A stretch of DNA of 64,000 bases from positions 1 to 64,000 of IMG/VR virus record IMGVR_UViG_3300037475_000079. The stretch is one strand, 5' to 3'. The notes below the pieces were generated by a model. It made no database searches and was not told where the DNA came from. It saw only the letters and a program-made list of their open reading frames with translations. This document shows positions 4,105-39,182 of this stretch, in pieces (position 1 is the first letter of the stretch; each line of letters begins with the position of its first letter). Position numbers and translations under genes: made by a program. The DNA comes from a virus.

Positions 4105-4139
4105 GAATGGATTGTGGTTTTACTTCAGGAGACTTTGAA

Positions 4140-4346
4140 ATGACGGGGACGATCAAGAAACTCATGCCCGAAGAAAAGGGCTTCGGATTCATTCGCAAGC
4201 AGGATGGAACCGATACTTTCTTCCACTGCCGATCTCTAATCGGCTGCGAATTCGGCCAGCTCCGCGAGGGACTGTCTGTTGAATTCGATGAGGAGCCCGG
4301 CAAGGAAGGGAAGCTACGAGCAAAGAACGTGAAGGTGGTTGCGTGA
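4140..4346 (+). CDS. cold-shock domain protein (CspA family)
   Basis: 'GTIKKLMPEKGFGFI..DTFFH' and 'EGLSVEFD' match the CSD RNP1/RNP2 pattern. GGAG lies 8 nt upstream of the ATG at 4140. Confidence 0.8.
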   Translation: MTGTIKKLMPEEKGFGFIRKQDGTDTFFHCRSLIGCEFGQLREGLSVEFDEEPGKEGKLRAKNVKVVA

Positions 4347-15861: not shown

Positions 15862-15906
15862 GAATCATCCTTTCAAAAGTGTTCCCCAAAACTTCCCCAA
15901 CACGCA

Positions 15907-16314
15907 CTAGATCAAGGTCTCTGTGATCGCTCCGTCGCTTTCGAACGTGCCACTCCACGGAATCGGATCGGCCGTATTGAAATTCGCCCCCAATGTGCGA
16001 GTGGAAATACGTCCCTGAAACGAAACGAAACTGGTTGGAAAATTCAGGAAGAGCTGGAACTGAATCAGCGCCCCCTTGTTGAACACGCTTCCAGGGCTGT
16101 AGTTCGGATCGAACAACCCTGAAATCGTGCCGCTGCATTTCTGATTGCCGAGAACGGTGGCCTGGCTTCCAACTCCCGCCACTACTTTCGACTGAGCGAC
16201 GTAAGTCTTGACGCCGTAGTCGATCGTGCCGGTGAACTCTGTGACCTCGGAAATGGCCGAGCCGCCAACTTTCAAATAACCCTGGTTTCCGCTGATTGCG
16301 CGGGGCGCAGCCAT
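15907..16314 (-). CDS. major tail (tube) protein
   Basis: 135-aa ORF directly upstream of G/GT, with AGGGAG in front of the ATG. Call is by position and size. Confidence 0.6.
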   Translation of the reverse strand: MAAPRAISGNQGYLKVGGSAISEVTEFTGTIDYGVKTYVAQSKVVAGVGSQATVLGNQKCSGTISGLFDPNYSPGSVFNKGALIQFQLFLNFPTSFVSFQGRISTRTLGANFNTADPIPWSGTFESDGAITETLI

Positions 16315-23633: not shown

Positions 23634-25895
23634 TTAGACTCCGACTTCATCAAATAAGGATTCAGCCAGCATGGCCTCGAATTCGAGTTCTTCTGGCGAC
23701 TTCACCGAAGTTTCTTCCAGCCATTTCATCAACTCTTCCGGGTCGATCGGCTGCTCCGACAGGCTTTCAGACGTGTTGATCCCATCGACTCCGCTGGCAA
23801 TGTCTGGATCCGTTCGCGGACGATCCGCCAATGTTCCTGGGACGTTCGTCACTCCGGCAGCAGGTGTCGATTTTCCGAGAGAAGCCGCGGTGACGTTGCT
23901 CCCGGCGATAGCGTTTGCATCGTCCGCCGCCCTGACATTCTCGGTGGGCAATCCAGGAAAGTGATTCATCGACGGCATATTGAGCACGTTCTGCGAAGGA
24001 ACACCTGTGAAGTGTGCCGATGCAGTAGCGTTTGTCGCGTTGTCCGTCGGTACGCCTTGGACTGGTGGGTTTCCTGTCGGATCGAGGCTGCTGTCTTTCA
24101 GGATTGACACCAGGCGATTGCCGGCAGCCATGACGTGCTGCTTAGCGATCTTCGAGACGTGCTGTTCACCGGCTCCGGCCAGAAACTCCAGGTGATCCTT
24201 GACTTCCTTCAGGGCTGTGGCGACTGCGGAATTCAATCCCGACATTCCGTCGTCATTCGCCATCGAAGTCTTATGGACCAGCGAATACCCCTGTCCTTTG
24301 GTGGGATGGGCGCCGACGACACATTTCGTACCCATGACGCCGTGGCAGCAGCCGTACATCTTCTGGATCTGCTCGGGGCTGTGGTACATATGGGCATTGT
24401 CGGGATGCACGTCGTCGGGATGCATGACGTGATGCACATACCCCTTCGCCGAGTTCAGGTAGACGCTCCCCTCTTTGCCGCTGTGCTGAACGACTCGCGC
24501 CATGGCCTTCAGGTGAGGCACATCGACATCGACGTGAGTGTTCACATTGCCGGCCGTGTCGTGATGCGAGGCGCTGTCCGAATCGAGAGGCTGAACGTAA
24601 CTCGCGTCGTTGACGTCTTTGACGGTAGGAGTTGCAGATCGCTGGACTCCGGGGTTCGTGCTCGGATTCGTCGGCGCAGGATTCACAACGCCAGTGCTGG
24701 GCGTCGGAATTCCTGGTTCTCCAGCCGGACCCTCATTGTTGGCGAGTGCCGTGTTCGGAGATGGGTTCTGCTGCGGGCCAGTGTTGGAACCGGATGCGAT
24801 TGCAAACACCGGATCGCCAACCTGCGTGGCGTCGAGTTGGAATGTCGGCCTGTCGAGTCCAGCGACCTCCTCATCAACGACCTCGTTCGCCATATGTCGC
24901 TCATGCCAATCATGGTCCCCCTGTTGTGGGCCCTGACCGCGATTCCCTTCGTTGTCTTCGAAGCGAGCACTGGTATTGGTCCATCCACCCGATGGCGACA
25001 AGCTGTCTCGCGGGGCGGTGCTGTCGGAAGATTCCCGAGATTGGCTGTTGTCCGACGCTTTGACTTCTGGAGCGGCCACGGAAGCCTCCTTCTTATGACA
25101 GGTGCAGGAATGATCTGCGGGTGATTTGACTTCTAGCGTCACGCCTTGCACTTGCGCCGTACGGGCGTCGAACATTCGCTTGGCGAACGATTTCACAAAC
25201 GGGTGATGCAGTTTTCCGCGCGAGAAGGCGGTGATGACTGCCGCTGGGTTGCTCGGAATCGGAACGACGCTGATCTCGTAGATTTCAAACCGTGAAATTA
25301 AGTACCTTCCGTTCTTCAACGGCTCATATTCAACGGGATCAAAACCGTGACTGATCCGCAAAGCGCCGCCTTCAATCAGAACCGCTGCATCGCGCCCCAA
25401 TGCAGTGTTGAACACGCAGCAGCGAGCTGACAAAATGCGATCGTTCTGTGCGATCTTGTTGACCAGTCGGCCGACCGGCATTTCGGGATTATGAAACATC
25501 AACAGCGGCGCGGCGGGATCGAGTATCGCCCCGGAACTCTTGAGGATGTCCCGATCGCGGTCCATCGACGATGCGGTCACGATGCAATCGAAATCCAGAA
25601 TCGAACCGGGAGTCAGAGACTGCCCTTTCGTTCCCAGATCGCCGATGATCGTGTCGCTGTCGCTATAGGTCAGTCGCCGATCCGCATCCTTCAGGATTGT
25701 GGACCAGTGCTCCAGCGACTTCGCGCCGAACATAGACGGATCGCACGGACCAGTCCCATTCAGGCAGGCTTGCAACGACCGCAGGTACTGACCTGCGTTG
25801 GCGATGTCGAAGTCTGCCGGCACATTGCGGCTGGAAATTGCAGTCAGTAAATCCGCAGTGCCTGCCTTCGTGGCCATCGACCAGTTGCTTTTCAA
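23634..25895 (-). CDS. prohead protease (HK97/S78 family) fused to a ~500-aa low-complexity, His-rich C-terminal region
   Basis: 'VTASSMDRDRDIL..PLLMFHNPEMPVGR..LIEGGALRISHGF..EISVVPIPSNPAAVI'. The start may instead be MATKAG at 25877. Confidence 0.75.
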   Translation of the reverse strand: MKSNWSMATKAGTADLLTAISSRNVPADFDIANAGQYLRSLQACLNGTGPCDPSMFGAKSLEHWSTILKDADRRLTYSDSDTIIGDLGTKGQSLTPGSILDFDCIVTASSMDRDRDILKSSGAILDPAAPLLMFHNPEMPVGRLVNKIAQNDRILSARCCVFNTALGRDAAVLIEGGALRISHGFDPVEYEPLKNGRYLISRFEIYEISVVPIPSNPAAVITAFSRGKLHHPFVKSFAKRMFDARTAQVQGVTLEVKSPADHSCTCHKKEASVAAPEVKASDNSQSRESSDSTAPRDSLSPSGGWTNTSARFEDNEGNRGQGPQQGDHDWHERHMANEVVDEEVAGLDRPTFQLDATQVGDPVFAIASGSNTGPQQNPSPNTALANNEGPAGEPGIPTPSTGVVNPAPTNPSTNPGVQRSATPTVKDVNDASYVQPLDSDSASHHDTAGNVNTHVDVDVPHLKAMARVVQHSGKEGSVYLNSAKGYVHHVMHPDDVHPDNAHMYHSPEQIQKMYGCCHGVMGTKCVVGAHPTKGQGYSLVHKTSMANDDGMSGLNSAVATALKEVKDHLEFLAGAGEQHVSKIAKQHVMAAGNRLVSILKDSSLDPTGNPPVQGVPTDNATNATASAHFTGVPSQNVLNMPSMNHFPGLPTENVRAADDANAIAGSNVTAASLGKSTPAAGVTNVPGTLADRPRTDPDIASGVDGINTSESLSEQPIDPEELMKWLEETSVKSPEELEFEAMLAESLFDEVGV

Positions 25896-26013: not shown

Positions 26014-26046
26014 AAAAAACCCACGACGGTTAGTCGTGGGTTTTTC
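26014..26046. terminator. bidirectional rho-independent terminator
   Basis: AAAAA-ACCCACGAC-ggtta-GTCGTGGGT-TTTTT. Confidence 0.55.
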
Positions 26047-26049
26047 ACA

Positions 26050-26240
26050 ATCATCCATTCCCGTCCTCACGAATTCTCTCCAGACCTCGCCTCGCCTGCC
26101 ACGCCAATCCCTACCGTTCCATGCCGGCCCTCTCCGATACGTTCCCGTCCTATCCATTCCTGCCATTCCTCGCCAACCCGATCCGCGCCGCTCCCAGCCG
26201 TTCCGGCCACGCCATGCCGGCCCAATCCGGCCACGTCGCT
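26050..26240 (-). repeat. strand-asymmetric heptamer array A (CCNWTCC on +, GGAWNGG on -)
   Basis: About 16 TCC triplets in ~190 nt by hand count. Shares the 15-mer TTCCCGTCCTATCCA (26142-26156) with array B. Confidence 0.6.
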
Positions 26241-26248
26241 AACATCAT

Positions 26249-26666
26249 CTACTTCGCACTCATCTTTCTGGCAACCGACTTCGCCGTCATTTTAGAACGA
26301 TTCGATTTCTTATTTCGTTCCCGAATCCGAATGACTCTTGCCGCTTCAAACACCTGCGCGAGTTCCGACAGCACGGCGTATTTCTGTTGGAAGAATTCCA
26401 ATTCACGCAGGGCCATCGCTAACATCGCCGCACGATGACCGGAATTACGAACAACGTCTGTCGTTCTCCGATACCCTCCAGTTTCTGTACCGCGGTCCTG
26501 AGGAAGTGAAACATAGGCACGGATGTTCTGTTCAACTGCCGGCTCAAAGTAGACACAGACACGGATGATTTGCCGAGCCTGCCACAGACGGTATTCGACG
26601 GCCGCCTTCGAGTCATCCCAGACGAATTCTGCGTGAAGCGCCGTCTTTCGATTTCTAGCAAACTCT
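26249..26666 (-). pseudogene. 3' part of a phage gene split by the transposon
   Basis: Protein-like open frame with no start codon (..EFARNRKTALHAEFVWDDSKAAVEYRLWQARQIIRV...KMSAK*). Joins in frame to 31441-31534 once the element is removed. Confidence 0.7.
26659..26666. repeat. target-site duplication, left copy (CAAACTCT)
   Basis: An identical 8-mer abuts the outer end of both terminal inverted repeats. Confidence 0.75.
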
Positions 26667-26691
26667 GGTACTGGCTAGATAGTGCGGTGCT
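26667..26691 (+). repeat. left terminal inverted repeat
   Basis: GGTACTGGCTAGATAGTGCGGTGCT. Confidence 0.75.
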
Positions 26692-26726
26692 CGACAGAAT
26701 GTCTGGATTGGCGACGTAAGTGCGGA

Positions 26727-26981
26727 TCAGGATTTTGTCATGCCAAGTCCCCAGACCCATTCGAGATAATTATGTAGCCACGCTGGACCGCTCTCGTATG
26801 CCCAACGAGCCGGGGCGCAATAAGACCATGTAATCTTTCCGGCAACGCTATTATCGTTCAGGAGTATTCCGCGAACGTCCAGCCACGCAATTGGAAACAG
26901 GCTCAGCGGATACCCCACGAGCACCGCGACCAGCACCACGGTCACCCAAAACGCCACACCGGGTTTCTTGCGGTCAGTCAT
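26727..26981 (-). CDS. small membrane protein (transposon cargo)
   Basis: Starts MTDRKKPGVAFWVTVVLVAVLVGYPLSLF. Its ATG overlaps the upstream TGA. Confidence 0.45.
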   Translation of the reverse strand: MTDRKKPGVAFWVTVVLVAVLVGYPLSLFPIAWLDVRGILLNDNSVAGKITWSYCAPARWAYESGPAWLHNYLEWVWGLGMTKS

Positions 26982-27094
26982 GGTTTGCGCCGCATGAATA
27001 TGATGGTGGACACCAGAGCGATCAGGCACGCGACTACGACTGGAATCCAGACCGCCGGAACAATCTCGTAATACCGCGCAATGATCGGGCTCAT
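26978..27094 (-). CDS. 38-aa membrane peptide (below the ORF-track cut-off)
   Basis: MSPIIARYYEIVPAVWIPVVVACLIALVSTIIFMRRKP*, coupled to the next gene by an ATGA overlap. Confidence 0.35.
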   Translation of the reverse strand: MSPIIARYYEIVPAVWIPVVVACLIALVSTIIFMRRKP

Positions 27095-27131
27095 GCCCGC
27101 ATTCTACCCACGGTGGCGTGGGAGCGGGAAG

Positions 27132-27650
27132 CTAATTATTTCGTTTTGTAGCTTTTTGGAATTCCGGAAACAGGCCATCGCCCAATATTGGAATAGGGAC
27201 TGGTGGGAAGCCCATGCGCACGCTCATTGATTGAACGAATTCTCGCCAATAAGGCCAAACCATGCGAAGACCCGACACCTGTCCAAAAGCTAAGGCGTCA
27301 TCTTCTGGCGGTGCCGACGATTCTGGTTTTAGTTGGAATACAATACGAAACGTTGCCTCGATCAAAATTGGCTGTTCCAGTGTTTTGAAAAACGCAGTCA
27401 TATTGAGTTTAACGATGTAATTGAGCGCCTTTGATCCATCTACGCCCTCCCCAAAGGCTGATTTAATCTCGACGTCAAATTTTGCCTCTGCTGGACCTGA
27501 AAGAGGCGATACCGGATGTTTGTCTCGCGATGAACCGCAATTTTCCAAGCGGATAAAACTAACCGTGGTAACGTCCTTCGCGACTCTCACAGCTCTGGTC
27601 AATTCATCTTCACTCCGATCGGTCGGCGTTTTTTTAAGCTTTTTGGACAT
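27132..27650 (-). CDS. SecB-like chaperone (third component of a TAC module)
   Basis: 'GLRMVWPYWREFVQSMSVRMGFPPVPIPILG' parallels SecB '[32 protein letters not shown]', and the upstream beta-strand pattern is also SecB-like. Confidence 0.65.
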   Translation of the reverse strand: MSKKLKKTPTDRSEDELTRAVRVAKDVTTVSFIRLENCGSSRDKHPVSPLSGPAEAKFDVEIKSAFGEGVDGSKALNYIVKLNMTAFFKTLEQPILIEATFRIVFQLKPESSAPPEDDALAFGQVSGLRMVWPYWREFVQSMSVRMGFPPVPIPILGDGLFPEFQKATKRNN

Positions 27651-28047
27651 GGTGAAGCGGCCGTTCAGTTTTGGTTTCCGGGAATTTCAGAATCCATCCG
27701 TCCGAGTCATCTTCAAATTGATTCGCAGAGAATGGAAAGCTCATCTGAAGCTTAATTCCAGTGCCAGAACTTGCCGGCCTAATCGTCGGGACAAATTCAT
27801 GTCCGAGCACCAAAAACACATCGGCTATTGTCCGAATCGTCATGTTTGCGCTGCCGTCCAAAAGCTGAGTGATATAGCCCTTGGTTTTCCCCAGTCTTGC
27901 CGCAAGCTCAGAACGAGTCACGCCGGCCTCATCCATGACGTCACAGACGAGATCCGTTGTATCCAATATTGACCGCTCCTGGTTCCATAGTAGCGCTCCC
28001 TCTTTGGAAGACGTTAAACGATCCTTCAGACTGGTCCATTTCGTCAC
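27634..28047 (-). CDS. XRE-family HTH antitoxin (HigA-like) with ~45-aa C-terminal extension
   Basis: HTH 'GVTRSELAARLGKTKGYITQLLDG'. Overlaps both the toxin and the chaperone genes. Confidence 0.7.
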   Translation of the reverse strand: MTKWTSLKDRLTSSKEGALLWNQERSILDTTDLVCDVMDEAGVTRSELAARLGKTKGYITQLLDGSANMTIRTIADVFLVLGHEFVPTIRPASSGTGIKLQMSFPFSANQFEDDSDGWILKFPETKTERPLHHVQKA

Positions 28048-28451
28048 TTATTCTGTCCCCCCTTTTCGTTAACCCTCTCCCATTGAAAATGTTCGGCTGC
28101 AATATTCTGGGCGTGCGTGATTGCCCCTTGTGGGCATTTCCCACGACCGCCAGCTTTCTTGATTCGATGCGTCAGAAGGACTCTCGGGCCGATGCGATAA
28201 CACAGCAATCTGTGGTCGCCTCGCTTGAACTCCCAAATATCTCCGTCAAGTTGCCGAAATTGCTCTTTGTTTGGAATTCGTCCAGAATCAACAAGGCGAC
28301 GAAACAAAACGTCAAAACTGGCTAGAACATTGACAGGACTTTTGTCGAACCACGACTTCGCTTCCATCGTTCCATCGGCGCGAATGGCAAATTCAACAGT
28401 GCCATAGCGACCCTTTTCCAGCGTTCTATCGTCGCGAGATGGGGCAGCCAT
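28044..28451 (-). CDS. HigB/RelE-superfamily toxin (Gp49-like)
   Basis: 'LDGDIWEFKRGDHRLLCYRIGPRVLLTHRIKKAG..P..AITHAQNIAAEH' fits the Gp49/HigB pattern. The toxin-first gene order is typical of HigBA. Confidence 0.7.
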   Translation of the reverse strand: MAAPSRDDRTLEKGRYGTVEFAIRADGTMEAKSWFDKSPVNVLASFDVLFRRLVDSGRIPNKEQFRQLDGDIWEFKRGDHRLLCYRIGPRVLLTHRIKKAGGRGKCPQGAITHAQNIAAEHFQWERVNEKGGQNK

Positions 28452-28610
28452 GAAGTTTATCTTAAACTAAACCACTGGTCAACGAAAAATCGAGATATAT
28501 TTGCGATCTCAATTCAATCATCTCAGCGAACCCGATGCGCATTGTGGTGTCAAGCGGATATGCACATTTCTTTATTCATCAATGACCGTCCGTTCACCCC
28601 GATGTAGTTC

Positions 28611-28705
28611 GGAGAACGGCCCGCGCCCTGGCGGCGCAGCAGACTTATACCCTGAAGGAGGGGACCGGCAGGCTGCCGGCTTGGGTTCGATTCCCCCGCT
28701 CTCCG
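28611..28705 (+). other. tRNA-like remnant (not a functional tRNA)
   Basis: GGGTTCGATTCCC T-loop-like box, a 6-bp CCGGCA/TGCCGG variable-arm-like hairpin, and a 6/7 acceptor pairing (GGAGAAC/GCTCTCC). The D and anticodon arms do not fold. Confidence 0.25.
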
Positions 28706-28711
28706 CTCGCT

Positions 28712-28894
28712 CTATCGAGTGTCACGCTTGGCGGCTCTGTTAAGCCGGTCACGAATCCAAGCGGCAAGAGACATTCCAGATTCGTCGGCGGCTGACCGCC
28801 ATGCGGTCTTGTCGGCGCTCGTCAGCCGCAACTGGAACACTTCTTCCGCGCGTTCGTCGGCTGGCTTCGGTGGTCGTCCACGCTTGGCTTTCAT
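28712..28894 (-). CDS. ribbon-helix-helix DNA-binding protein (paralogue 1 of 3)
   Basis: Basic N-terminus, then 'FQLRLTSADKTAWRSAADESGMSLAAWIRDRLNRAA' (strand-helix-helix pattern). Confidence 0.55.
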   Translation of the reverse strand: MKAKRGRPPKPADERAEEVFQLRLTSADKTAWRSAADESGMSLAAWIRDRLNRAAKRDTR

Positions 28895-28900
28895 GGCTGG

Positions 28901-28971
28901 ATTGTAATTACAAGAAATCTTTTGTCAACCGCTGATTTTCTGTTGACACCTGACTAAATGTAATTACAATA
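28901..28971. promoter_or_regulatory. mirror-image divergent promoters with TGTAATTACA palindromic operators
   Basis: Minus: TTGACA (28923-28928), 16 nt, TACAAT (28901-28906). Plus: TTGACA (28943-28948), 16 nt, TACAAT (28965-28970). Each -10 is embedded in TGTAATTACA. Confidence 0.5.
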
Positions 28972-29107
28972 AAGCCAGTGAAAGAGAAAACCCCGATCAG
29001 TGTTATCAGCACCGACCGGGGCGAGAACACAACCCGGCGAATCGCCGAATCGCGTCCCTGACAAGAACGATTCTAAACGATTCGCCCCCACAAAGGGAGA
29101 GCGAATC

Positions 29108-30061
29108 ATGGCATGTCCGAAATGCGGATCAGAGAACGTAAAGGCCAACGGAAAGCATCGGAACGGGAGTCAGCGGTTCAAGTGTCGTGACTGCAAGAAA
29201 ACATTCACGGAAAATCGCCTCAAGCCGCTTGGCGACATGCGGCTGCCGGTCGAAAAGGCATTGAACATTCTCCGGCTGCTGCTCGACGGCATGTCGATTC
29301 GCGCGTGTGAACGGTTCACGGGCGTCTGCCACAAGACGATTTGTGACATGATTCTTGAGGTCGGTGATCGATGCGGACAGTTCCTTTCAGACCGCCTGCA
29401 AGGCGTGCCGGTTTCCGACGTGCAGTGTGATGAAATTTGGTCGTTCGTCGGCATGAAGGAGCGGACGAAAACGAACACGCACAATAGCGACCCGCTCATG
29501 GGCGACAGCTATTGCTACGTCGGACTGGAACGCGATACGAAACTGATCGTCTCGTACCTGCTCGGAAAGCGCGACGAATTCGACACGCATGAATTCGCGT
29601 CCGGTTTGCGGCGCGCGACGGCGGGACGGTTCCAGCTTTCGACAGATGGGTGGCAGCCGTACTACACCTACATGCCGCTCGAATTCGGGCAGCGGATTGA
29701 CTTCAGCACGATAATCAAGACGTTCGCCAATGCACCGCGCGGGAGCGGGAGGTACTCGCCGGGTGAGATAGTGACGATCAACAAGCGCCCGGTTGTCGGT
29801 GATCCCGACTTGTCTCGCGTTTGCACTTCGCACGTCGAGCGATCGAACTTGACAATTCGCATGTCTATTCGCCGCTGGACCCGGCTCACGAATGCATTCT
29901 CGAAATCGTGGAAGCACCACAACGCCATGATGGCAATTTTCGTCGCGTTCTATGATTTCTGCCGGACCCACATGACGCTCAAGACGACTCCCGCTGTCGC
30001 GGCTCGCTTGACGGATCATCCGTGGACACTTGAGGAATTGCTGACGGCAGCCGCGATATAG
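29108..30061 (+). CDS. IS1-family transposase (single ORF with N-terminal zinc finger)
   Basis: 'MACPKCGSENVKANGKHRNGSQRFKCRDCKKTF', DDE candidates 'VQCDEIWSF', 'LSTDGWQPY', 'SHVERSNLTIRMSIRRWTRLTNAFSK', and 'FYDFCRTHMTL'. Confidence 0.8.
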   Translation: MACPKCGSENVKANGKHRNGSQRFKCRDCKKTFTENRLKPLGDMRLPVEKALNILRLLLDGMSIRACERFTGVCHKTICDMILEVGDRCGQFLSDRLQGVPVSDVQCDEIWSFVGMKERTKTNTHNSDPLMGDSYCYVGLERDTKLIVSYLLGKRDEFDTHEFASGLRRATAGRFQLSTDGWQPYYTYMPLEFGQRIDFSTIIKTFANAPRGSGRYSPGEIVTINKRPVVGDPDLSRVCTSHVERSNLTIRMSIRRWTRLTNAFSKSWKHHNAMMAIFVAFYDFCRTHMTLKTTPAVAARLTDHPWTLEELLTAAAI

Positions 30062-30075
30062 GACCGGAAACGACC

Positions 30076-30114
30076 AACCCCGCCGGAGTGATTCGGCGGG
30101 GTTCTTGTATTTTC
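30076..30114 (+). terminator. rho-independent terminator after the transposase gene
   Basis: AACCCCGCCG-gagtgatt-CGGCGGGGTT followed by a T-rich tail. Confidence 0.6.
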
Positions 30115-30127
30115 GAGACTTTGTATA

Positions 30128-30172
30128 TTATGCAAGATCCCCCTTGACAATCGTTGCATATCTTGCATAATT
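30128..30172 (+). promoter_or_regulatory. promoter with TTGCATA operator repeats for the second TA pair
   Basis: TTGACA (30144-30149), 17 nt, ATAATT (30167-30172). Inverted repeat TTATGCAAGAT/ATCTTGCATAA. Three copies of the heptamer TTGCATA/TATGCAA. Confidence 0.5.
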
Positions 30173-30225
30173 GAATGCGGCTGGGGCGGCACGAGTGCCG
30201 AAACATTTTCAGGGGAGTCTTGACC

Positions 30226-30681
30226 ATGCCGGACGATGCTAAATCGCAAATCGAGAAACCGCAGCAATCTCTTACTGTAGTTGCGCTCGACTGGGCCAAG
30301 GACGAAGGAAGGCGGATTCTGACGAATGAGCAATACTGGCACGTCGTCAGATACATCAAGCGGCTAGTCGAATTTGGCGACAAATCGGCAATGTCAGACC
30401 TCTCGATAAGCCAACTGGGGAGTGGATTTTGGGCACTTAAACTGAAGGGGCGGATCTTGAAAAAGATCAACCTCCGAATTTATTTCGCCCATGTTCCTGA
30501 AAGGAATGAAATTGTTGTGTTGATGGCCTACAAAAAAGAAGAAGATCGTCGCGTATGTCCAGCAGTTAAGTACCTTTTGGAGGACAGGCTTGAAGATTAC
30601 TTGGCGGGCCGCACAGAGCGGGCGAGCTATTTTTCTGGGGAAACGGGCGAACCACGGGGCTCTGAATCGGAGGGCGAATAA
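30226..30681 (+). CDS. RelE/HigB-like toxin (Gp49-like), second TA pair
   Basis: 'FWALKLKGRILKKINLRIYFAHVPERNEIVVLMAYKKEED'. GGGGAG lies 8 nt upstream of the ATG. Confidence 0.55.
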   Translation: MPDDAKSQIEKPQQSLTVVALDWAKDEGRRILTNEQYWHVVRYIKRLVEFGDKSAMSDLSISQLGSGFWALKLKGRILKKINLRIYFAHVPERNEIVVLMAYKKEEDRRVCPAVKYLLEDRLEDYLAGRTERASYFSGETGEPRGSESEGE

Positions 30682-31166
30682 TGAGTGTCACAATCGAAAA
30701 AAATAATGCGGCGGTTGAGAAAGAGCGCGTCCAGGATCTGTTGCTTGCATATACAAAACTGCCGAAGAAAAAAAAGGATCGCGTCGAAAAGCTGGTGGAA
30801 TTGCTCAGAACGGCCGACCCTGGCAGTGAAGAGCAGCGGGAGATCGCCGGTGCGATCGCCGAAATCCTCATTCCGCATATAATCGGAAGGAGTCAATCGC
30901 GACCAGTGGATTTGGAGGAAGGGATTTCATCTGCTGGACGCCAAAGCGTTGATGCGTATCACAAAAGCGTTGGCGAAGCGATCCGCAATGCGAGGGACGA
31001 AGCAGGCATGACGCAAGAGATGTTGGCGAAAAATAGTGGCTTGCCGCAGAGCCACATCAGTAGGCTGGAAGCTGGAATCCACGCCCCGACGAACAAGACG
31101 ATTGAGAAAATTGCGGAAGCTCTAAATATTGATCCATCAAAACTCGACCTGCTTTATGATTCATGA
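30681..31166 (+). CDS. XRE-family HTH antitoxin, second TA pair
   Basis: C-terminal HTH 'GMTQEMLAKNSGLPQSHISRLEAG..PTNKTIEKIAEAL'. The ATG overlaps the toxin stop. Confidence 0.65.
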   Translation: MSVTIEKNNAAVEKERVQDLLLAYTKLPKKKKDRVEKLVELLRTADPGSEEQREIAGAIAEILIPHIIGRSQSRPVDLEEGISSAGRQSVDAYHKSVGEAIRNARDEAGMTQEMLAKNSGLPQSHISRLEAGIHAPTNKTIEKIAEALNIDPSKLDLLYDS

Positions 31167-31193
31167 TTGTCAGGGCGTGATGTTTCTTACAAA

Positions 31194-31225
31194 AGCCAGC
31201 CGTCCGATGACGGTTGGCTTTTTCG
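31194..31225 (+). terminator. rho-independent terminator after the second TA pair
   Basis: 11-bp stem AGCCAGCCGTC/GACGGTTGGCT (one G-U pair), loop CGAT, then a T-run. Confidence 0.55.
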
Positions 31226-31269
31226 CTTTCCACTCGCCCTCCCGTCGCCATCCAGGGTATGATTGCGGC

Positions 31270-31404
31270 ATGAACATTTGGCCTGAACTTCTGGTGTGGG
31301 GCGTCCTGCTGGCGGTGGCCGGCTATCAGCTATTCGATCTCGCGCGAGACTTGGACGCACGCGATAAAAAGTCGCGGTCGCAATCGCCCGATTCCGCTCC
31401 CTGA
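31270..31404 (+). CDS. possible 44-aa membrane peptide
   Basis: MNIWPELLVWGVLLAVAGYQLFDLARDL.. ends 11 nt before the right terminal repeat. No clear RBS. Confidence 0.25.
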   Translation: MNIWPELLVWGVLLAVAGYQLFDLARDLDARDKKSRSQSPDSAP

Positions 31405-31415
31405 CCGGACGAGCC

Positions 31416-31440
31416 AGCACCGCATTGTCTAGCCAGTACC
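31416..31440 (-). repeat. right terminal inverted repeat
   Basis: The reverse complement is GGTACTGGCTAGACAATGCGGTGCT, 23/25 identical to the left repeat. Confidence 0.75.
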
Positions 31441-31448
31441 CAAACTCT
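31441..31448. repeat. target-site duplication, right copy (CAAACTCT)
   Basis: Identical to 26659-26666. Confidence 0.75.
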
Positions 31449-31534
31449 ACAACATCAGCCGGGTTGACCGCGCCGTCTTCGGAGCGGCTGCGAATCAGTT
31501 CGATTTCTTCACGAATCTTGTCGCTTGACTTCAT
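31441..31534 (-). pseudogene. 5' part of the phage gene split by the transposon
   Basis: GGAGG RBS, then MKSSDKIREEIELIRSRSEDGAVNPADVVEF. After 31441 the frame runs into the terminal repeat and turns Arg/Pro-rich. Confidence 0.7.
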
Positions 31535-31555
31535 TTTTAACCTCCATGCTTAGAG

Positions 31556-31830
31556 TTGGTTTTCCTGCCGTTCCGGTCCATTCGCGACCTCTGCGGTCCA
31601 ATCCTCTCCGATCCGTTCCGGCCATTACTATCCTGTCGTTTCCACTCCGATCCGGTACGGGCCTATCCGGCCTCTCCGTTCCTCTCCGCTGCCCTCCGAT
31701 CCATTCCCGTCCTATCCACTCCACCCCTGCCACTCCCTTCCATTCCCCACCATTCCGCATCTTTCCGGTCCTATCCAGCCATTCCGCTGCCTACCTATCC
31801 GCACCGATCCGTACCATACCGTTCCGGCCT
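31556..31830 (-). repeat. strand-asymmetric heptamer array B (GGAWNGG on the transcribed strand)
   Basis: About 33 TCC triplets in ~275 nt by hand count. Recurring CCGTTCC, CCATTCC, CCGATCC and CCTATCC words. Open in most frames because stop codons are depleted. Confidence 0.6.
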
Positions 31831-32519
31831 TACTGAATCACATCAAACGTGCCCCAGCCCATGCCCGGAGAATCCTTCGATGACGGACGGCCTTCGAGAA
31901 CGCCGCAGCTTGCGCCAGCATGCGCCAGCAGATTGGCAATGTCCTGAAGCGTGAACGCATCAGCGTCGAAGCGAATCGTGACGACAGCTTCCCAGCCAGA
32001 GTTGAACTTGGCACGCGCTCGAAGATCGCACGATCCGTTGTCGTTGCGTACCGGGGAAACCATCATCTCTGGTTTCCCCTTCGTCAACTTTACGAGCGGC
32101 GTGAAATCCTCCGACTCTCCATCAGGCAGCACGTTGAACGCCTGCTTTGCCGCAGCCATCGAGAAGTCAATGGCCGGTGAGCGGCAGGCGTCAATCAGCG
32201 CATGACGGAACGACGCGCACGGAATTCCGAGCCATCCATCATTCGAGATGTGCTTCGACGCTTCATAGCAGGCGTCGAAATCCTTGGCGTCTCGCTTGCG
32301 GTTTTTCTTCGCCGTGCATCCGGCCTTCTGGTCGCTCTCCATTTTGTCCTTGGCCTTTTGGCTGAACTTGTTCATCACGAGCCATGCGTTCCCGCGCACC
32401 TTGAATTGCGCGACCTGCCGATTCGGTGCCTTGATTGTGACGTGCCGCGTCTCGACGGTCGCCGCAATTCGATTGACGCCGTTCGTTCCGTTCTTCGTTG
32501 CCGTTGCCATCTCAAACAC
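31830..32519 (-). CDS. hypothetical head-region protein
   Basis: 229-aa ORF with protein-like composition. Family not recognised. Confidence 0.5.
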   Translation of the reverse strand: MFEMATATKNGTNGVNRIAATVETRHVTIKAPNRQVAQFKVRGNAWLVMNKFSQKAKDKMESDQKAGCTAKKNRKRDAKDFDACYEASKHISNDGWLGIPCASFRHALIDACRSPAIDFSMAAAKQAFNVLPDGESEDFTPLVKLTKGKPEMMVSPVRNDNGSCDLRARAKFNSGWEAVVTIRFDADAFTLQDIANLLAHAGASCGVLEGRPSSKDSPGMGWGTFDVIQ

Positions 32520-32651
32520 TCCTGATTAAAAGCGAAAACCCGATATCCTGGCCGGTCAGACCTGCGGAAATCGGGCTTCGCGTAAACTTCTGATTTGGCT
32601 GACCGGCCATTGGCCACATTGTACCCACGATGCGGCAACGGTCAACCCACA

Positions 32652-34407: not shown

Positions 34408-36759
34408 TTACTCCGATAATAGACTGCAACGGCAGTTGATCCTCTGGGAAGCCGACAAATCGGGATCTCCCGGATATTTTGCCTTTTCCCCGCCGACAGT
34501 GAAGTTCCCTTCCGCGTCCGACTTCTGGCCGTTCGCATTCCAGTGCGATTGTCTGGCGTGCTCATCCATCGTGGTCAGCCATTCAGAACCAGTGGCAATC
34601 CCCTCTTCGATCATGTCCTGAATCTCGGAGAACTGGCCGGCGTTCAATGCCATCGTGCTCTCTGATCTGGCAATCATCAGCGATCTCGCGCCAGCAGAAC
34701 GGCCACCCAACGCCTGATCGACTCGGAACACACGTTCCCGCAGTGTGTCGCCTTCCTCGAAGGAAATACGCAGGCAGTTGCTCAGGTCATCGAGCATCGT
34801 ATCGTTGATGCCGGACCAGTACGGTTTCTTCAGTGCCTCATCGAGCGTGCGCTTCATGGCAGCCACGACGCCGGCCGGAAGTCGCATCGTCGGATCGGCG
34901 TCATCCTTCCTGAATGACTTCAGTTTGTGCCGAGCTAATTCGGCACCGGCAACCCCACATCGCAGCAAGTGTGGATAGGCCATCTTGCGTAACGGCGCAT
35001 CCCAGTCTCGTGGATTGAACACCGCGGCAGCATCGAAGGCGTCGGCCTGCTGGTCCATCTTGGCGACGATTGACGCCACCTGTGCCTTGATGAACTTATG
35101 CACGTCTCTGGCGAACGGCTTCTCGTTGTTCGAATGCAGTTTAAGCCATGACGTCTCGAAGTCCTTCGTCGTGTCTGACGTAATCAGCAGTTGCTTCGCG
35201 GTATCAGATTCGGAATTCGATTGTTGCTGCGTGGTTGGATCTGGCGGCAGGTATTCTTCCCGAACTTCCAAGGCAGTGGCAGCTTCGTCGTCGATCGGTT
35301 CGAGGATCTGCATGGCCGTCGTGATTCGGACTTTCCCCATCCCATTCGGCATCGGAGGAAATCCGAGAGACGAGCGCAGTTCATCGACAACCAGGCCGGC
35401 ATTACCGCACAGCAGTTCCAGGTCTTTGCGGAGACCGTCCTTGTCGGAAGAAACGGCTTCCTCGATCCACATGACCGTATGGCCGGTCTTTTTCTTATCG
35501 AACAATGGCAGGAGCCGGTCGTTCATGATCGTCGAGAGGAAATTGATCTCGGGATTGGCGATGTTCGAAGTGAACACCTCATCTGCCACGAGTGCCGTGG
35601 CGCGATTGGCGTCCGTGATGTCCCCGCCGACGACCGCAGGCGTGCCGTAGTTCCGCCAGATGGCCTGGCGGTTGTAGGTTCCCGATTCGGTGAAGTCCAT
35701 TTCGTTGGCGGTGTTCGAAATCTTCTTGATGTCCGAAATTGCTCGATCGAGGATGATTGCCCGACCGTGCTTCGAAGCCCCTTGGAACAGGTGCTGAAGC
35801 CGTGTCATCATTTGCGTGATCTGGAATCTGTCGAGCTGGGCCTTGCCAAGATTCTTGCCGTTCGGGTCGATGATGTCCCCGGTGATGACCGCTAACCAAG
35901 GCAGAATCGAGTTCTCGAAGAACTGTCGCTGACTCAAACGGATTGACTCATCAACCTGCACGGCCAGTACGCCGGCTCGCGTCGGCGAATGCGGCACGAA
36001 GATATTCGCCGGGTCGGGATGGCAGAAGAAGATCACCCGATCGGCCGGAAGATCGACGCCTTCCATCTGGTTGAACGGAGGCGCGAGCACATACCCCGCG
36101 TCCAGCATGGCATTTCTCGGCTTCTCGCGGATCCAGTGCGAGGGGAGATACCACAAGTCGTACGGGCGATCTCCGGTGTGAGAGTCGGTCAGCCACCAGA
36201 AGCAGCGGCCGGTCATATCCAGGCTGGCGACGGTGCTTTCCAGGAGCGTGTGCTGCGTCAACCGGGGAATCGGCTGCGACAGCAAGTCCAAGACCGGATG
36301 GTTCTCCAGGATCTCGACTCGGGCCGCTTCTGAATGAAAGCTCTTGTGCAGCTTGATCCGGGTTCCGAGGTTCTCATGAAACGGCAGTCCGATTCGAGAG
36401 CAAATCCACTTCGGGAGAACGGCAGTCTCTTCCGGTTGAAGCTCCCGGCGCCCCGGAGTCTTGAACGGGTTCGAGAATCCCTTACGCTTGCCTGATTCTT
36501 CCCGAGCGGACACAACTTCCGCCACATGAATCGGCTGGCCGGCGATGCGCTGCCTTTTGGGGCGCATGGCGGCGTAGGCTTCTCCCGTGTTGTGGGAGTA
36601 GGAGTTTTGCGACTGAAACTGTTCGGGATCGGCCTGTTGAGGATACTGGCTTTCGTTCAGCGAATTGAAGATGCGTCCGGCATCGTTCGATCCGCGACGC
36701 CGCTTCAGTTCACGATCCTTGTCCGCCCACGAGCGGATTTCGGCAAGAGCAGACGACAT
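34408..36759 (-). CDS. portal protein fused to a MuF/SPP1 gp7-like head morphogenesis domain
   Basis: 783 aa, downstream of terL. The C-terminus 'TTMDEHARQSHWNANGQ....YPGDPDLSASQRINCRCSLL' matches the MuF signature. GAGGA RBS. Confidence 0.7.
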   Translation of the reverse strand: MSSALAEIRSWADKDRELKRRRGSNDAGRIFNSLNESQYPQQADPEQFQSQNSYSHNTGEAYAAMRPKRQRIAGQPIHVAEVVSAREESGKRKGFSNPFKTPGRRELQPEETAVLPKWICSRIGLPFHENLGTRIKLHKSFHSEAARVEILENHPVLDLLSQPIPRLTQHTLLESTVASLDMTGRCFWWLTDSHTGDRPYDLWYLPSHWIREKPRNAMLDAGYVLAPPFNQMEGVDLPADRVIFFCHPDPANIFVPHSPTRAGVLAVQVDESIRLSQRQFFENSILPWLAVITGDIIDPNGKNLGKAQLDRFQITQMMTRLQHLFQGASKHGRAIILDRAISDIKKISNTANEMDFTESGTYNRQAIWRNYGTPAVVGGDITDANRATALVADEVFTSNIANPEINFLSTIMNDRLLPLFDKKKTGHTVMWIEEAVSSDKDGLRKDLELLCGNAGLVVDELRSSLGFPPMPNGMGKVRITTAMQILEPIDDEAATALEVREEYLPPDPTTQQQSNSESDTAKQLLITSDTTKDFETSWLKLHSNNEKPFARDVHKFIKAQVASIVAKMDQQADAFDAAAVFNPRDWDAPLRKMAYPHLLRCGVAGAELARHKLKSFRKDDADPTMRLPAGVVAAMKRTLDEALKKPYWSGINDTMLDDLSNCLRISFEEGDTLRERVFRVDQALGGRSAGARSLMIARSESTMALNAGQFSEIQDMIEEGIATGSEWLTTMDEHARQSHWNANGQKSDAEGNFTVGGEKAKYPGDPDLSASQRINCRCSLLSE

Positions 36760-36906: not shown

Positions 36907-37425
36907 CTATTCCCCCATCATCCTCTGCTGCCAGTTCACCGCTGGATCTTTTGCACCGACGATGCGCTCGTTGTAAACCGCGATCTCCGCCTTCTCGCGC
37001 GTCAGGTTCTTCTCGTGCAGGGCCGCGAGCAGCTTGTTCTCATCTTCCAGGACGTCGATGCGATTCTTCAGACGTGGAATGTCTGTATCTTCGAGCCGAC
37101 TTACCTCCCGAGCCTTGGTAGCCAGACGTCCTTCGAGTTCCTTGATCTGATTATCCTTGGCGGTCAGTTTCAACGCAATGTCAGCAACCTGCTTGGCGGC
37201 GTCACGCTTAGACTTGACGGCCTCTAACCGGGCGTCACGGATGGCTTGTGATTCCTGGCGACGGCGGATGAGCTTGCGGAGAGCGGTCCAGGTGCGAAGG
37301 AAGATGCCGGGTGTAACATCGACGACGCGGACATTGACGGCACACTCACCAATTAGTGGACGGCGAGTCTCGTGGCCGTTTGTTGAGGGCGGTTCAAGTT
37401 CAGGCCATTCGTGCCTTTTCACCAT
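36907..37425 (-). CDS. coiled-coil protein
   Basis: Start taken at MVKRHEW. Long heptad-like region 'AKQVADIALKLTAKDNQIKELEGRLATKAREVSRLED'. Confidence 0.45.
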   Translation of the reverse strand: MVKRHEWPELEPPSTNGHETRRPLIGECAVNVRVVDVTPGIFLRTWTALRKLIRRRQESQAIRDARLEAVKSKRDAAKQVADIALKLTAKDNQIKELEGRLATKAREVSRLEDTDIPRLKNRIDVLEDENKLLAALHEKNLTREKAEIAVYNERIVGAKDPAVNWQQRMMGE

Positions 37426-39182
37426 TCCATTTTCCCATTCTCTTCCAACGCCATCGACATGACAGCGGTATCCAGATTGACGGCTTTCTCGACGGGGATC
37501 CTCTTGCGGCCAGAGCACTTCGGACACATCCGATTCTTCCCGTCGCATTCGTCACACGGGATTGTACGCATCTTCGGATCGTCCTGAAAAGGCTGATCTG
37601 GTTCGGAGAAGCCTTCGTCGTCCTCATTTCGCGGCTTTTCAGGCACGCCGTGTTCGATGTCGTACAGTCGCTTTTCCATGCTGTCCAGGGTATACATCAA
37701 CTCACGATCGGTGAACGGATTGACGGGAACGATCGAGGCTAATTCGACGGCAGCCGGGAGCGCAATAGCGAACGCAAACGCCCTGTCAGCATGGCCCGAC
37801 TGATCCTCCGACGCCTCGATCTTGAACCCGAAGGCACGCTCCACGATGTTCAACTTCGTCAGGTCGCTGATGAGTTCTTCGTCCCGGTAAAGCTCGATGT
37901 ACCGCCCCTTAAAGGCTTCGATGATGGTCGTGGCCATCACAGACAGCCCCTTGCCGCTGAACGACATTTCCTCGCAGTAGATTCCCACGCTCTGAAGCTG
38001 CTGCGCCATGAGCACGGCCTGTGCCTGGTCATACATCAGCTTTGTCAGCCGAAAAGCCCTGTGTTGCCGCTCGATGTCCACCTGGATCGCCTGAAGGTCC
38101 ACCTTCCCGGTGTATTCATCCGGCTTCCAACTGCGGGCATAAGCCAGCTTGACGCGATGCTCGTCAGGCTGTACTGCCAGCATCACAAACGCCGACCGAT
38201 GCCGCTTCGTAGACAAGTCCAGCCCGCCGATGTAAACCCACCCCGGCTCCGGTGCGAAGATCGGCCGGACATTCCGCTCGATACCCATCACAACGCAGGC
38301 TTCGATATCGGACAACTCCAGAGCATCGCCTGTTTCAACCTGCCAGATATTGAGCCAGAGACGGGCAAAGGCCTTCTTCGTGAGCCCTTTACCCTGCCGC
38401 TTCAGGAAGTCAGTTCCCATCCACGAGGCACACGGACCATTCAGATTTCGGTAGATCCAGTCATGACTATCCGCGATCGCCATATCCCTGACCTGCGCCT
38501 GCCACGTCCTCTCGTAGCCGGCGTTTGTCATGATGACGAGAATGCAATGCGGCACCTTGTCAGCCGACGAAAATAACGAGTCCCAAAGCTCGCATTTTCC
38601 GTCTTCCGAACGCCAATGCGTCAACTCGTCGCACAGAATGAAATCGGGAGTGGCGCCGAACGACGAGGGAGCATCCGACGAAATGATGTCTACTTCTGAC
38701 TTCGTTTTCGGATTGAACACCCGATAATTCTGGACGTTGATGATGTTAAGGCCAGTCTTGCCCAGCCACGGATTGAGCAGAATGATCCTCAACACGGCGT
38801 CCCGGATGAACTTCGCCTGATCTTTCGCCCCGGCAGCGGCAATTCCATTCAAAGGCTTCGTGGAAAAAGCAATCACCCACACCAACTGCATCGCCTCATC
38901 CATCGTCTTCGAATGTCCACGCGCACGACCCAGCCACGCAAACTTTCGCAACTCCGGGTTCTCCATCGGCACGCCAGCCACACGCATCCACATCGGATCC
39001 AATGCCGCTAAATTCTCTTCCTGCCAGGGATCTGGACTGAATAGCCCCACCCCATTCCCCTTGCGGATGAACAGCGAAGCCCGAAATGCAGCCGGAGACC
39101 TCTTAAACCGACGAATGTCATCCGGCGTAATCGCCGCCAAAACCTTGCGTGACGGAACAGTCGGTCGTCCAGCCTTTGCCAC
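37419..39182 (-). CDS. terL: terminase large subunit
   Basis: Walker A-like 'GRARGHSKT', Walker B 'FILCDELTHW', nuclease 'GGLDLSTKRH' and 'GHADRAFAFAIA'. C-terminal CxxC..CxxC tail. Confidence 0.85.
   Translation of the reverse strand: MAKAGRPTVPSRKVLAAITPDDIRRFKRSPAAFRASLFIRKGNGVGLFSPDPWQEENLAALDPMWMRVAGVPMENPELRKFAWLGRARGHSKTMDEAMQLVWVIAFSTKPLNGIAAAGAKDQAKFIRDAVLRIILLNPWLGKTGLNIINVQNYRVFNPKTKSEVDIISSDAPSSFGATPDFILCDELTHWRSEDGKCELWDSLFSSADKVPHCILVIMTNAGYERTWQAQVRDMAIADSHDWIYRNLNGPCASWMGTDFLKRQGKGLTKKAFARLWLNIWQVETGDALELSDIEACVVMGIERNVRPIFAPEPGWVYIGGLDLSTKRHRSAFVMLAVQPDEHRVKLAYARSWKPDEYTGKVDLQAIQVDIERQHRAFRLTKLMYDQAQAVLMAQQLQSVGIYCEEMSFSGKGLSVMATTIIEAFKGRYIELYRDEELISDLTKLNIVERAFGFKIEASEDQSGHADRAFAFAIALPAAVELASIVPVNPFTDRELMYTLDSMEKRLYDIEHGVPEKPRNEDDEGFSEPDQPFQDDPKMRTIPCDECDGKNRMCPKCSGRKRIPVEKAVNLDTAVMSMALEENGKMEW

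Follow-up and report, generated by a model that had tools for sequence, protein, structure and literature searches.

GG-phased pentamer arrays in a phage head-gene cluster: a very probable VIPR locus with adenine-rich repeats

VIPR (Viral Interference Programmable Repeat) is a newly reported form of RNA-guided DNA recognition and has been proposed as an ancestor of CRISPR. Such a system consists of a minimal RAMP protein (Vipr), an accessory gene (vap) and flanking intergenic arrays (bioRxiv 10.64898/2026.04.26.720920). Here we analysed a stretch of 64,000 nucleotides of viral DNA (positions 1 to 64,000 of the IMG/VR record IMGVR_UViG_3300037475_000079; hereafter the window), in which two purine-rich tracts of the minus strand, array B (31566..31829) and array A (26057..26243), lie on either side of a small gene split by a transposon. 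We observed a pentamer architecture in both tracts, a RAMP fold and homology to Vipr in the model and profile of the 229-aa protein encoded directly upstream, and, among relatives, a strand-specific co-occurrence of such arrays with vipr and vap. Both tracts are very probably vrRNA arrays of a phage-encoded VIPR system, to which this locus adds one more member. The 2026 preprints describing VIPR came to our attention because a profile match carried the name 'Vipr'; the original prediction, made from the sequence alone, knew of no described phage element of this type and is out of date in this respect.

A vrRNA is made up of 9-16 YNNGG repeats, with a conserved GGY and hypervariable NN positions (bioRxiv 10.64898/2026.04.26.720920). 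One Vipr protomer binds each repeat in a right-handed helical filament. The beta-sheet, the thumb, the G-loop and helix 1 form pockets that take up the flipped-out GGY, and the NN pairs recognise double-stranded DNA, skipping a single base in every repeat; the resulting protein-clamped R-loop triplex silences transcription, the natural targets being rival phages and satellites (bioRxiv 10.64898/2026.04.26.720920, 10.64898/2026.04.26.720927). The first preprint also mentions seven types, ribozyme-interspersed arrays and the alternative repeats NNNGG, YNNNG and NNNNG (bioRxiv 10.64898/2026.04.26.720920), as well as 'staggered arrays', with an overlap of 1 nt between one vrRNA and the next (bioRxiv 10.64898/2026.04.26.720920, fig. 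S17 and S18 legends, Methods).

With type II VIPR (Escherichia phage SUSP1 and the Pseudomonas fulva prophage) the window locus shares a phage-borne minimal RAMP of 20-25 kDa, an adjacent small, putatively accessory gene, and same-strand intergenic arrays with an invariant GG and a hypervariable NN, the type II guides having 9-16 pentamers. Conservation extends to the arginine of the thumb and, in the G-loop, to an acidic residue and an arginine. Unlike type II, its repeats have mostly A, not a pyrimidine, at the third position, and the window arrays lack a conserved structured 3' tail or pseudoknot and a per-guide spacer: whereas in phage Alf5 a tail lies between repeat tracts, in the window and its clade they are separated by a 4-nt junction only. 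Other differences from SUSP1 concern the proteins, since the window Vipr has Gly in its G-loop in place of the stacking Trp178 and an extra C-terminal segment, SK.S.GMGWGTF, and the window vap is unrelated in sequence to vap1. A 4-nt junction in a pentamer lattice is what a 1-nt overlap between adjacent guides would look like, a feature which, like the absence of a fixed pyrimidine from the consensus, is found in the staggered and NNNGG forms of VIPR. On the evidence of the preprint's figure legends, the window arrays would belong to a staggered, tail-less form.

The class 1 CRISPR backbones (Cas7, Csm3 and Cmr4 on crRNA) are likewise built on the RAMP fold: each protomer covers a fixed step of RNA, the thumb flips bases periodically, and a helical ribonucleoprotein presents the guide. 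Three bases are sequestered per step of 5 nt in VIPR, against one base flipped per 6 nt in class 1 CRISPR. Unlike in class 1 CRISPR, the guide is noncontiguous and there is no repeat-spacer array, Cas6, Cas5, Cas10 or adaptation gene. The lone RAMP is the sole Cas-like gene at the locus, and we found no identical 25-40-nt repeats alternating with unique spacers in the window.

Pentamer lattice of the two tracts

Hand counts in the original prediction had given about 33 GGA triplets in the tract of array B and about 16 in that of array A, several-fold above expectation. We reproduced these numbers: the minus strand has 33 GGA in 31556-31830 and 16 in 26050-26240, against 6.1 and 4.2 expected from the window-wide frequency of TCC. 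The announced strand asymmetry was also found, the minus strand containing 73% purine in the tract of array B and 69% in that of array A, and in the k-mer and skew check proposed at the same time the two tracts came out as the strongest TCC(+)/GGA(-) hot spots across the 64 kb.

The tracts had been described as built from irregularly spaced heptamer words, and this had to be corrected. On the minus strand, nearly all GGA-to-GGA distances are 5, 10, 15 or 20 nt, and the GG-to-GG spacing is a multiple of 5 in 32 of 48 cases in array B (binomial p = 3e-12) and in 21 of 33 in array A (p = 6e-8). The repeat unit of both tracts is a degenerate minus-strand pentamer, G-G-(A/C)-N-N, and the GGAWNGG 'heptamer' is one pentamer together with the head of the following one. 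We also scanned the whole window with a GG-phase detector, which requires that at least 7 of 10 pentamer slots within 50 nt begin with GG. It returned 43 positives, all of them in arrays A and B and on the minus strand only, whereas mononucleotide shuffles of the window gave about 0.5 on average and 6 at most; in shuffles of the arrays' own composition about 0.1 were obtained, against 26 and 16 observed. Such a 5-nt detector recovers arrays of this kind with almost no false positives.

By phase tracking, we observed in the lattice a slip of exactly -1 after every 9-12 pentamers, via a 4-nt unit (GGCC, GGCT, GGGT or GGCA). Array B, which begins one base past the upstream stop codon, consists of units of 9, 10, 10, 9 and 10 pentamers (31825-31781, 31776-31727, 31722-31673, 31668-31624 and 31619-31570), each preceded by one junction (GGCC, GGCT, GGGT, GGCC and GGCC, respectively), with a final GGCA at 31569-31566. 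The units of array A contain about 4-7 pentamers (26243-26209, partly degenerate), 8 (26204-26165), 12 (26160-26101) and 8 (26096-26057), and its junctions are GGCC, GGCA and GGCA. The number of guides would be about five in array B and about three to four in array A. Several pentamers of the window are degenerate, and about 15-20% of them have no GG.

The 15-mer TTCCCGTCCTATCCA, which had been noticed in both tracts, occurs at 26142 and 31704 and nowhere else in the window. It corresponds to three and a bit successive repeats, GGATA GGACG GGAA (26160-26141 and 31722-31703), and is common to the third unit of each array, in which the adjoining repeats agree in part (NN = TA, CG, A?, TC). These two guides may have arisen by duplication and diverged since, with targets that are related.

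Elsewhere in the window, secondary TCC-rich stretches of the plus strand are present at 45150-45600 and 15650-15950 (10-13 TCC per 200 nt). Both lie inside long minus-strand open reading frames, the pentamer-phase detector is silent there, and they probably reflect ordinary coding bias.

The adjacent RAMP protein and its relatives

TRAP binds the trp leader at 11 (G/U)AG triplets with spacers of 2-3 nt; it forms a closed 11-mer ring and has no guide function. Because of the analogy with TRAP, in which a protein oligomer likewise reads a triplet about every 5 nt on single-stranded RNA, we searched for a binder encoded by the phage itself. No TRAP-like protein is encoded in the window, and a TRAP-like ring binder was rejected; the candidate binder is a RAMP, whose fold is unrelated to that of TRAP.

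This candidate is the 229-aa protein encoded on the minus strand at 31830..32519, directly upstream of array B (a public gene call for it uses a different start). Its AlphaFold model has a pLDDT of 83 and a pTM of 0.77. When this model was compared with the PDB by Foldseek, the top 50 matches were all Csm3, Cmr4 or type VII Cas7 (E-values from 3e-5, probability 1.0), and matches among the viral models of BFVD include a 'Cas system-associated RAMP superfamily protein'. In Pfam and NCBIfam the protein has no match, and its PHROG family, phrog_4652, is of unknown function. A profile search of PDB sequences gave as best match 36pp_D, 'SUSP1 Vipr protein', with an E-value of 0.13. With hhalign, a match was obtained to the SUSP1-type Vipr of phage Alf5 (gp091) with a probability of 78% and an E-value of 1.8e-5 over 53 columns. 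The matched region consists of the last strand, the helix and the G-loop, and covers both the thumb arginine and the G-loop: the family-invariant Arg169 falls on the SUSP1 thumb residue Arg138, and Glu-Gly-Arg of the G-loop on SUSP1 Asp177-Trp178-Arg179, R179 being paired with the invariant R211.

Judged by its predicted structure and by these profile matches, the 229-aa protein is a minimal Cas7/Csm3-like RAMP with homology to a solved Vipr. As the phage's own RAMP, it is likely to bind the pentamer repeats. The suggestion of multi-site protein binding in the original prediction has thus gained ground for an RNA-binding protein, here the predicted RAMP, and lost it for a CsrA/RsmA-type regulator.

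Viral relatives of this protein number more than 547 in IMG/VR. Aligning its homologues, of which the protein database has 263, allowed us to retrieve and examine 80 of these viral loci. GG-phased pentamer arrays are present in 71 of them, and they occupy three slots: upstream of vipr, between vipr and the next gene, and after the next gene. They lie on the strand of the gene, the opposite strand giving only three small detections. In 66 of the 80 loci, a vap homologue (150-170 aa) follows vipr directly. The positional conservation in related phages that the original prediction wished to see checked is therefore present, and with arrays in at least 71 of the 80 sampled relatives and more than 547 relatives in IMG/VR alone, the staggered form is very common. 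The window sequence is found with full identity in a 93-kb Logan contig of SRR12917118. One homologue comes from a Sedimentisphaeraceae metagenome-assembled genome, which hints at a Planctomycetota host; the window locus extends VIPR to a phage or prophage whose closest relatives are in Planctomycetota-type metagenome bins.

We built a sequence logo over 81 distinct arrays (20.6 kb), which gave G 0.90, G 0.92, C 0.75, N, N. In the same arrays, 344 of 377 phase shifts are -1, via GGCA or YGCA, and successive shifts are most often 40-60 nt apart (median 49 nt). Locus L188 has a variant of this: in its 710-nt array (4126-4835), the GGC pentamers are punctuated at intervals of 40-50 nt by 9-nt units, GGA(W)(W)(Y)GCA, a junction form unlike the plain GGCA.

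A 73%-identical copy of the 167-aa gene that lies between the window's arrays (the vap homologue described below) is found in IMG/VR contig L001/L121, which has a 400-nt array in the slot of array B and nothing in the downstream slot. The slot after vap is also empty in L204, so in both closest relatives, and it is used in many other relatives, for example Cy-LDV1, L128 and L130; the slot between vipr and vap is filled in L121, L204 and many others. No alignable array units are common to the window, L121 and L204, despite Vipr proteins that are 85-89% identical. Among cultured phages, the cyanophage Cy-LDV1 (g34, g33) has two arrays in the same layout as the window, and cluster-F-like mycobacteriophages such as Donkeykong also share this layout.

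Between GGCA and the next ribosome-binding site, GG(A/C)AA…ACCAA is read in the window at 31546-31569, in L201 at about 4800 and about 5545, and in L202 at about 2840. This ACCAA-type end is present in the window, in Cy-LDV1 and in Donkeykong and overall at 12 of 86 array ends, and we dropped it as a conserved tail for that reason.

We also scanned viral contigs for GGANN x6. This recovered long degenerate arrays beside distant homologues of both genes in the unrelated phages L091, L103 and L113. In L103 (13401-13775), a conserved pyrimidine-rich spacer of 32 nt, GGCTTTTCATCATCCATATCCATACCGAAACA, lies between successive runs of 12-16 GGA-type pentamers, and the Vipr has a SUSP1-like G-loop (…GLSDYRPKFGRF); L103 is probably a tail-type VIPR that uses GGA. 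The matches in L090, L069, L054, L027 and L080 were discarded, being coding low-complexity linkers or perfect GGAAT microsatellites unrelated to VIPR.

As the original prediction had warned for the window, gene callers do place artefactual open reading frames in the arrays. We considered a coding pentapeptide-type repeat and rejected it: about half of the arrays of at least 150 nt have stops in all three sense frames, and arrays end at the next ribosome-binding site. A 5-nt lattice gives the same 5-residue pattern in all three frames, so that the phase shifts alone do not exclude coding. Mis-annotation is routine even in curated mycobacteriophage records: in Donkeykong, what is annotated as 'gene 48' (L202 2480-2866) turns out to be a GGCNN array some 320 nt long, immediately upstream of the Vipr-like gp49, and arrays are treated as protein-coding by annotations or gene callers also at L205 2775-3026 and L204 4652-4861.

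Proposed mechanism and the third repeat base

At the window locus we infer expression, processing, filament assembly, DNA targeting and the biological targets by analogy with the described systems. The tracts are strand-specific and non-random; they would be functional and transcribed with the flanking genes. By homology with SUSP1 and P. fulva, the transcript would be cut into guides of about 50 nt, each with 9-12 G-G-(A/C)-N-N pentamers, presumably at the 4-nt junctions. GG and the third base would be flipped into the Vipr pockets (thumb, G-loop and helix 1), leaving the two variable bases exposed, and a filament would assemble with one Vipr protomer per pentamer. The concatenated NN pairs could then bind double-stranded DNA, reading NN-x-NN-x with one base skipped each time, and the protein-held R-loop triplex would block transcription, typically in rival phages or satellites, an effect that the small accessory protein Vap would enhance.

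Several results weigh against the assignment to VIPR. The Foldseek TM-scores of the 229-aa model to Cas7 proteins are modest (0.35-0.48), and the homology to a characterised Vipr is remote and restricted to the 53 C-terminal columns. Vap has no sequence similarity to the SUSP1-type vap1, the accessory gene of Alf5, and in the window it is interrupted by an insertion, so that the locus may be crippled. Targets were also sought by applying the 1-nt skip rule (NNx) to eight guide units, with exact matching only at the scale of whole collections. In the window and the 204 fetched loci, nothing was found beyond shuffled controls, and perfect matches were confined to the arrays' own sequence, at skip 3. 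The exact NNx patterns of four units had zero matches in viral, metagenome and genome collections, and those of two other units (20-base and 18-base) had two matches each, equal to the chance expectation; these four chance-level matches belong to unrelated taxa, either to cellular genes or to viral contigs of low GC that have no relation to the window phage. Finally, the third repeat base in the window is A in 61%, C in 25% and T in 10%, which departs from the pyrimidine of the GGY of type II. The third-base pocket of SUSP1 and P. fulva 'sterically excludes purines' (bioRxiv 10.64898/2026.04.26.720927), and GGY-to-GGA is among the motif changes that abolish silencing (bioRxiv 10.64898/2026.04.26.720920, 10.64898/2026.04.26.720927).

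The non-pyrimidine third base sets the locus apart from type II and not from VIPR as a whole, because the preprint admits 'a related consensus' and NNNGG repeats. The window would be a natural case of guides with a GGA handle, whereas the structurally characterised Vipr proteins exclude a purine at this position. Repeats are mainly GGA in the window and its nearest kin, L121 and L204, and GGC in most relatives.

Within the clade of the window, we observed that the identity of the third base goes with that of the G-loop residue just before the conserved Glu. Where this residue is Gly (G-[IV]-G-E-G-R-P), the arrays are GGC at every such locus in the clade. The G-loops GVLEGRP (window and L121) and GVCEGRP (L131) go with GGA-rich arrays, and GILEGRP or GLLEGRP (L123 and L140) with GGT-rich ones. 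The clade loci behind this comparison are L121-L200, L131, L123, L140, L146-150 and L154, in which Leu, Cys or Ala accompany A-rich, T-rich or mixed arrays; one exception, L192, was found in the clade. As a general rule for GGA the relation was rejected, since it fails at the distant GGA-type loci L091, L103, L113 and L137. We take this covariation as a lead, not a finding. It is a tentative idea, which we hold to be somewhat doubtful, that the third-position pocket of this clade has evolved to tolerate or prefer adenine, the handle base being tuned by the G-loop residue before Glu. If this were true, handle switching would make co-infecting VIPR systems orthogonal, with a rival's Vipr unable to load or hijack the guides, and could be put to use in engineering mutually insulated VIPR channels. 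The adenine-type handle is one of the points that keep the locus of interest now that VIPR has been described, together with the abundance of the staggered form, the transposon-split vap and the mis-annotation of arrays as genes.

The split vap gene, competing explanations and the surrounding region

On the minus strand, the elements of the putative operon follow each other in the order promoter, vipr, array B, vap, array A and terminator. The original prediction had stated that removal of the transposon leaves a single 504-nt gene bracketed by the arrays, which was borne out: excision of 26667-31440 together with one copy of the 8-bp duplication restores a gene of 504 nt and 167 aa. Its 5' fragment (31441..31534) includes one copy of the target-site duplication and starts with ATG at 31534, behind a GGAGG ribosome-binding site at 31541-31545; its 3' fragment is at 26249..26666, with the stop codon at 26249-26251. 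Coordinates also agree with the predicted place of array B between the upstream stop and this ribosome-binding site. The array ends about 20 nt before GGAGG, and the interval consists of an A/C-rich end, GGAAAACCAACTCTAAGCAT (31546..31565, minus strand).

The 167-aa protein has no Pfam or NCBIfam match, and its PHROG family, phrog_15946, is of unknown function. We modelled an intact 74%-identical homologue (pLDDT 87), in which a weak winged-helix resemblance is followed by a long C-terminal helix; the matches to forkhead/MarR-type winged helices are weak, the best having an E-value of 0.17. By analogy with the described systems, Vap may be a small, DNA-binding accessory protein.

The insertion in vap is an IS1-type composite element of 4,774 bp (26667..31440), which is outside the VIPR system proper but disrupts it. 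It is bounded by an 8-bp target duplication, CAAACTCT, and by 25-bp inverted repeats that match at 23 of 25 positions. The perfect target-site duplication and the almost perfect inverted repeats mark the insertion as recent. The element carries terminator-like hairpins and genes in opposite orientation, and may have separated array A from the vipr promoter, with loss of its transcription from there.

This bears on the alternative that survives best, namely that a true VIPR locus has lost its function in this particular prophage, with vap inactivated, array A cut off from the promoter and the repeats drifting. The insertion between arrays B and A, the fraction of window pentamers without GG and the failure of exact-match searches to return targets all fit a dead locus. 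However, vipr and array B are intact and contiguous, and the damage is recent. In SUSP1, vipr and vrRNA are enough for silencing, vap only enhancing it, and internal degeneracy is reported to be common in working vrRNAs (bioRxiv 10.64898/2026.04.26.720920). We therefore regard loss of function as possible but rather unlikely.

Another explanation is that the arrays are decaying or neutral simple-sequence DNA, or a Vipr-independent G-rich element such as a two-tetrad G2N3 quadruplex or an R-loop promoter, with no guide function. G2N3 is formally a two-quartet quadruplex motif; the turnover is fast, as illustrated by the lack of shared units between the window, L121 and L204, and the degenerate pentamers and the broken vap also agree with decay. 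Neutral decay would, however, erode the five positions equally, whereas GG is kept at 0.90-0.92 and positions 4 and 5 are near random. Nor would such DNA be confined to a single gene pair, a single strand and three slots, as the arrays are in 71 of 80 loci, and a quadruplex has no need of a phase kept strictly for 300-700 nt or of -1 junctions each ~50 nt. A G2N3 quadruplex, telomere-like or R-loop element, which leaves these junctions unexplained, became superfluous once the protein partner was known. Both simple-sequence DNA and a Vipr-independent G-rich element are very unlikely.

The original prediction had favoured, among its speculative roles, a decoy for a host GGA-binding regulator of the CsrA/RsmA type. 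The RNAs CsrB, RsmY and RsmZ carry GGA in hairpin loops at irregular spacing and titrate the host protein. The arrays resemble them in having many GGA motifs in non-coding RNA, dense on the transcribed strand (the 33 and 16 copies given above). They differ from them in that the motifs keep to a strict 5-nt lattice instead of sitting in hairpin loops; when folding was checked, the RNA of array B showed no excess structure over shuffles (z = -0.63), and Rfam gave zero matches at the gathering threshold in the window, thus no CsrB/Rsm family. Because most relatives' arrays use GGC (C at 0.75 in the third position of the 81 arrays), GGA is not the selected feature, and the third base co-varies with the phage's own RAMP, encoded directly upstream. 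A sponge for a host regulator is for these reasons extremely improbable.

Hardly credible, finally, is a set of double-stranded DNA sites (pac, centromere or iteron-like) for a ring- or filament-forming DNA-binding protein such as a small terminase, suggested by fixed-orientation direct repeats near head and packaging genes and by the ~50-bp superperiod, which first evoked a ring of about 10 (9-11) subunits, since 5 bp per subunit would be too short for a wrapped duplex, the modules of Cy-LDV1 and the mycobacteriophages lie in the early/immunity region far from packaging genes, the neighbouring protein is by fold an RNA-binding RAMP and not a terminase, and a published VIPR system co-purifies with RNA (bioRxiv 10.64898/2026.04.26.720920). 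A small-terminase pac site was dropped on the early-region modules and the RAMP-like neighbour, and the recombination or packaging signal of the original prediction has gained no support. A Rho-utilisation site on the antisense transcript was also set aside, that strand having about 15-25% G. VIPR thus remains the reading that we retain for both arrays.

The boundaries of the operon are less firmly placed. A candidate promoter at 32618..32645 (minus strand; TTGACC, 16-nt spacer, TACAAT) matches the consensus at 10 of 12 positions about 100 nt upstream of the vipr start. A consensus scan of the region gave 6 promoter-like sites against 4.6 expected, a weak indication, and its promoter function is putative. 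At the other end, array A is bounded on one side by the restored gene's stop codon and on the other by a terminator-like hairpin with a T-run at 26014..26040 (minus strand; CCCACGAC, loop TAACC, GTCGTGGG, then TTTTTT), as the original prediction had it. This hairpin was recognised by inspection of the sequence and is not listed by a consensus terminator scan.

Within the IS1-type element, the IS1-family transposase is encoded at 29108-30061 on the plus strand. The cargo on the minus strand comprises a Gp49/HigB-like gene (28044-28451), a helix-turn-helix gene (27634-28047) and a gene with a weak SecB-like match (27132-27650), a combination that looks like a toxin-antitoxin-chaperone module in its predicted products. 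A second cargo pair consists of an unknown gene (30175-30681) and an HTH_3 gene (30681-31166), and a NikA-like ribbon-helix-helix gene is located at 28712-28894. At about 28640-28720, also inside the element, the DNA looks like part of a tRNA or tmRNA, namely its T-arm and acceptor end (…GGTTCGATTCCCCCGCTCTCCGCT…). Neither ARAGORN, which made no call in the window, nor Rfam reports it; it may be a remnant of an attachment site.

The locus is situated in a cluster of phage head genes on the minus strand, which provides the phage or prophage setting. Upstream are TerL (37419-39182) and the portal gene (34408-36759), followed by small genes and the 229-aa gene; beyond the hairpin come a prohead-protease fusion (23634-25895) and the major capsid gene (21976-23589), all in the same orientation. 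The portal open reading frame is unusually long (783 aa) and combines matches to portal and to Mu F-like head-morphogenesis proteins.

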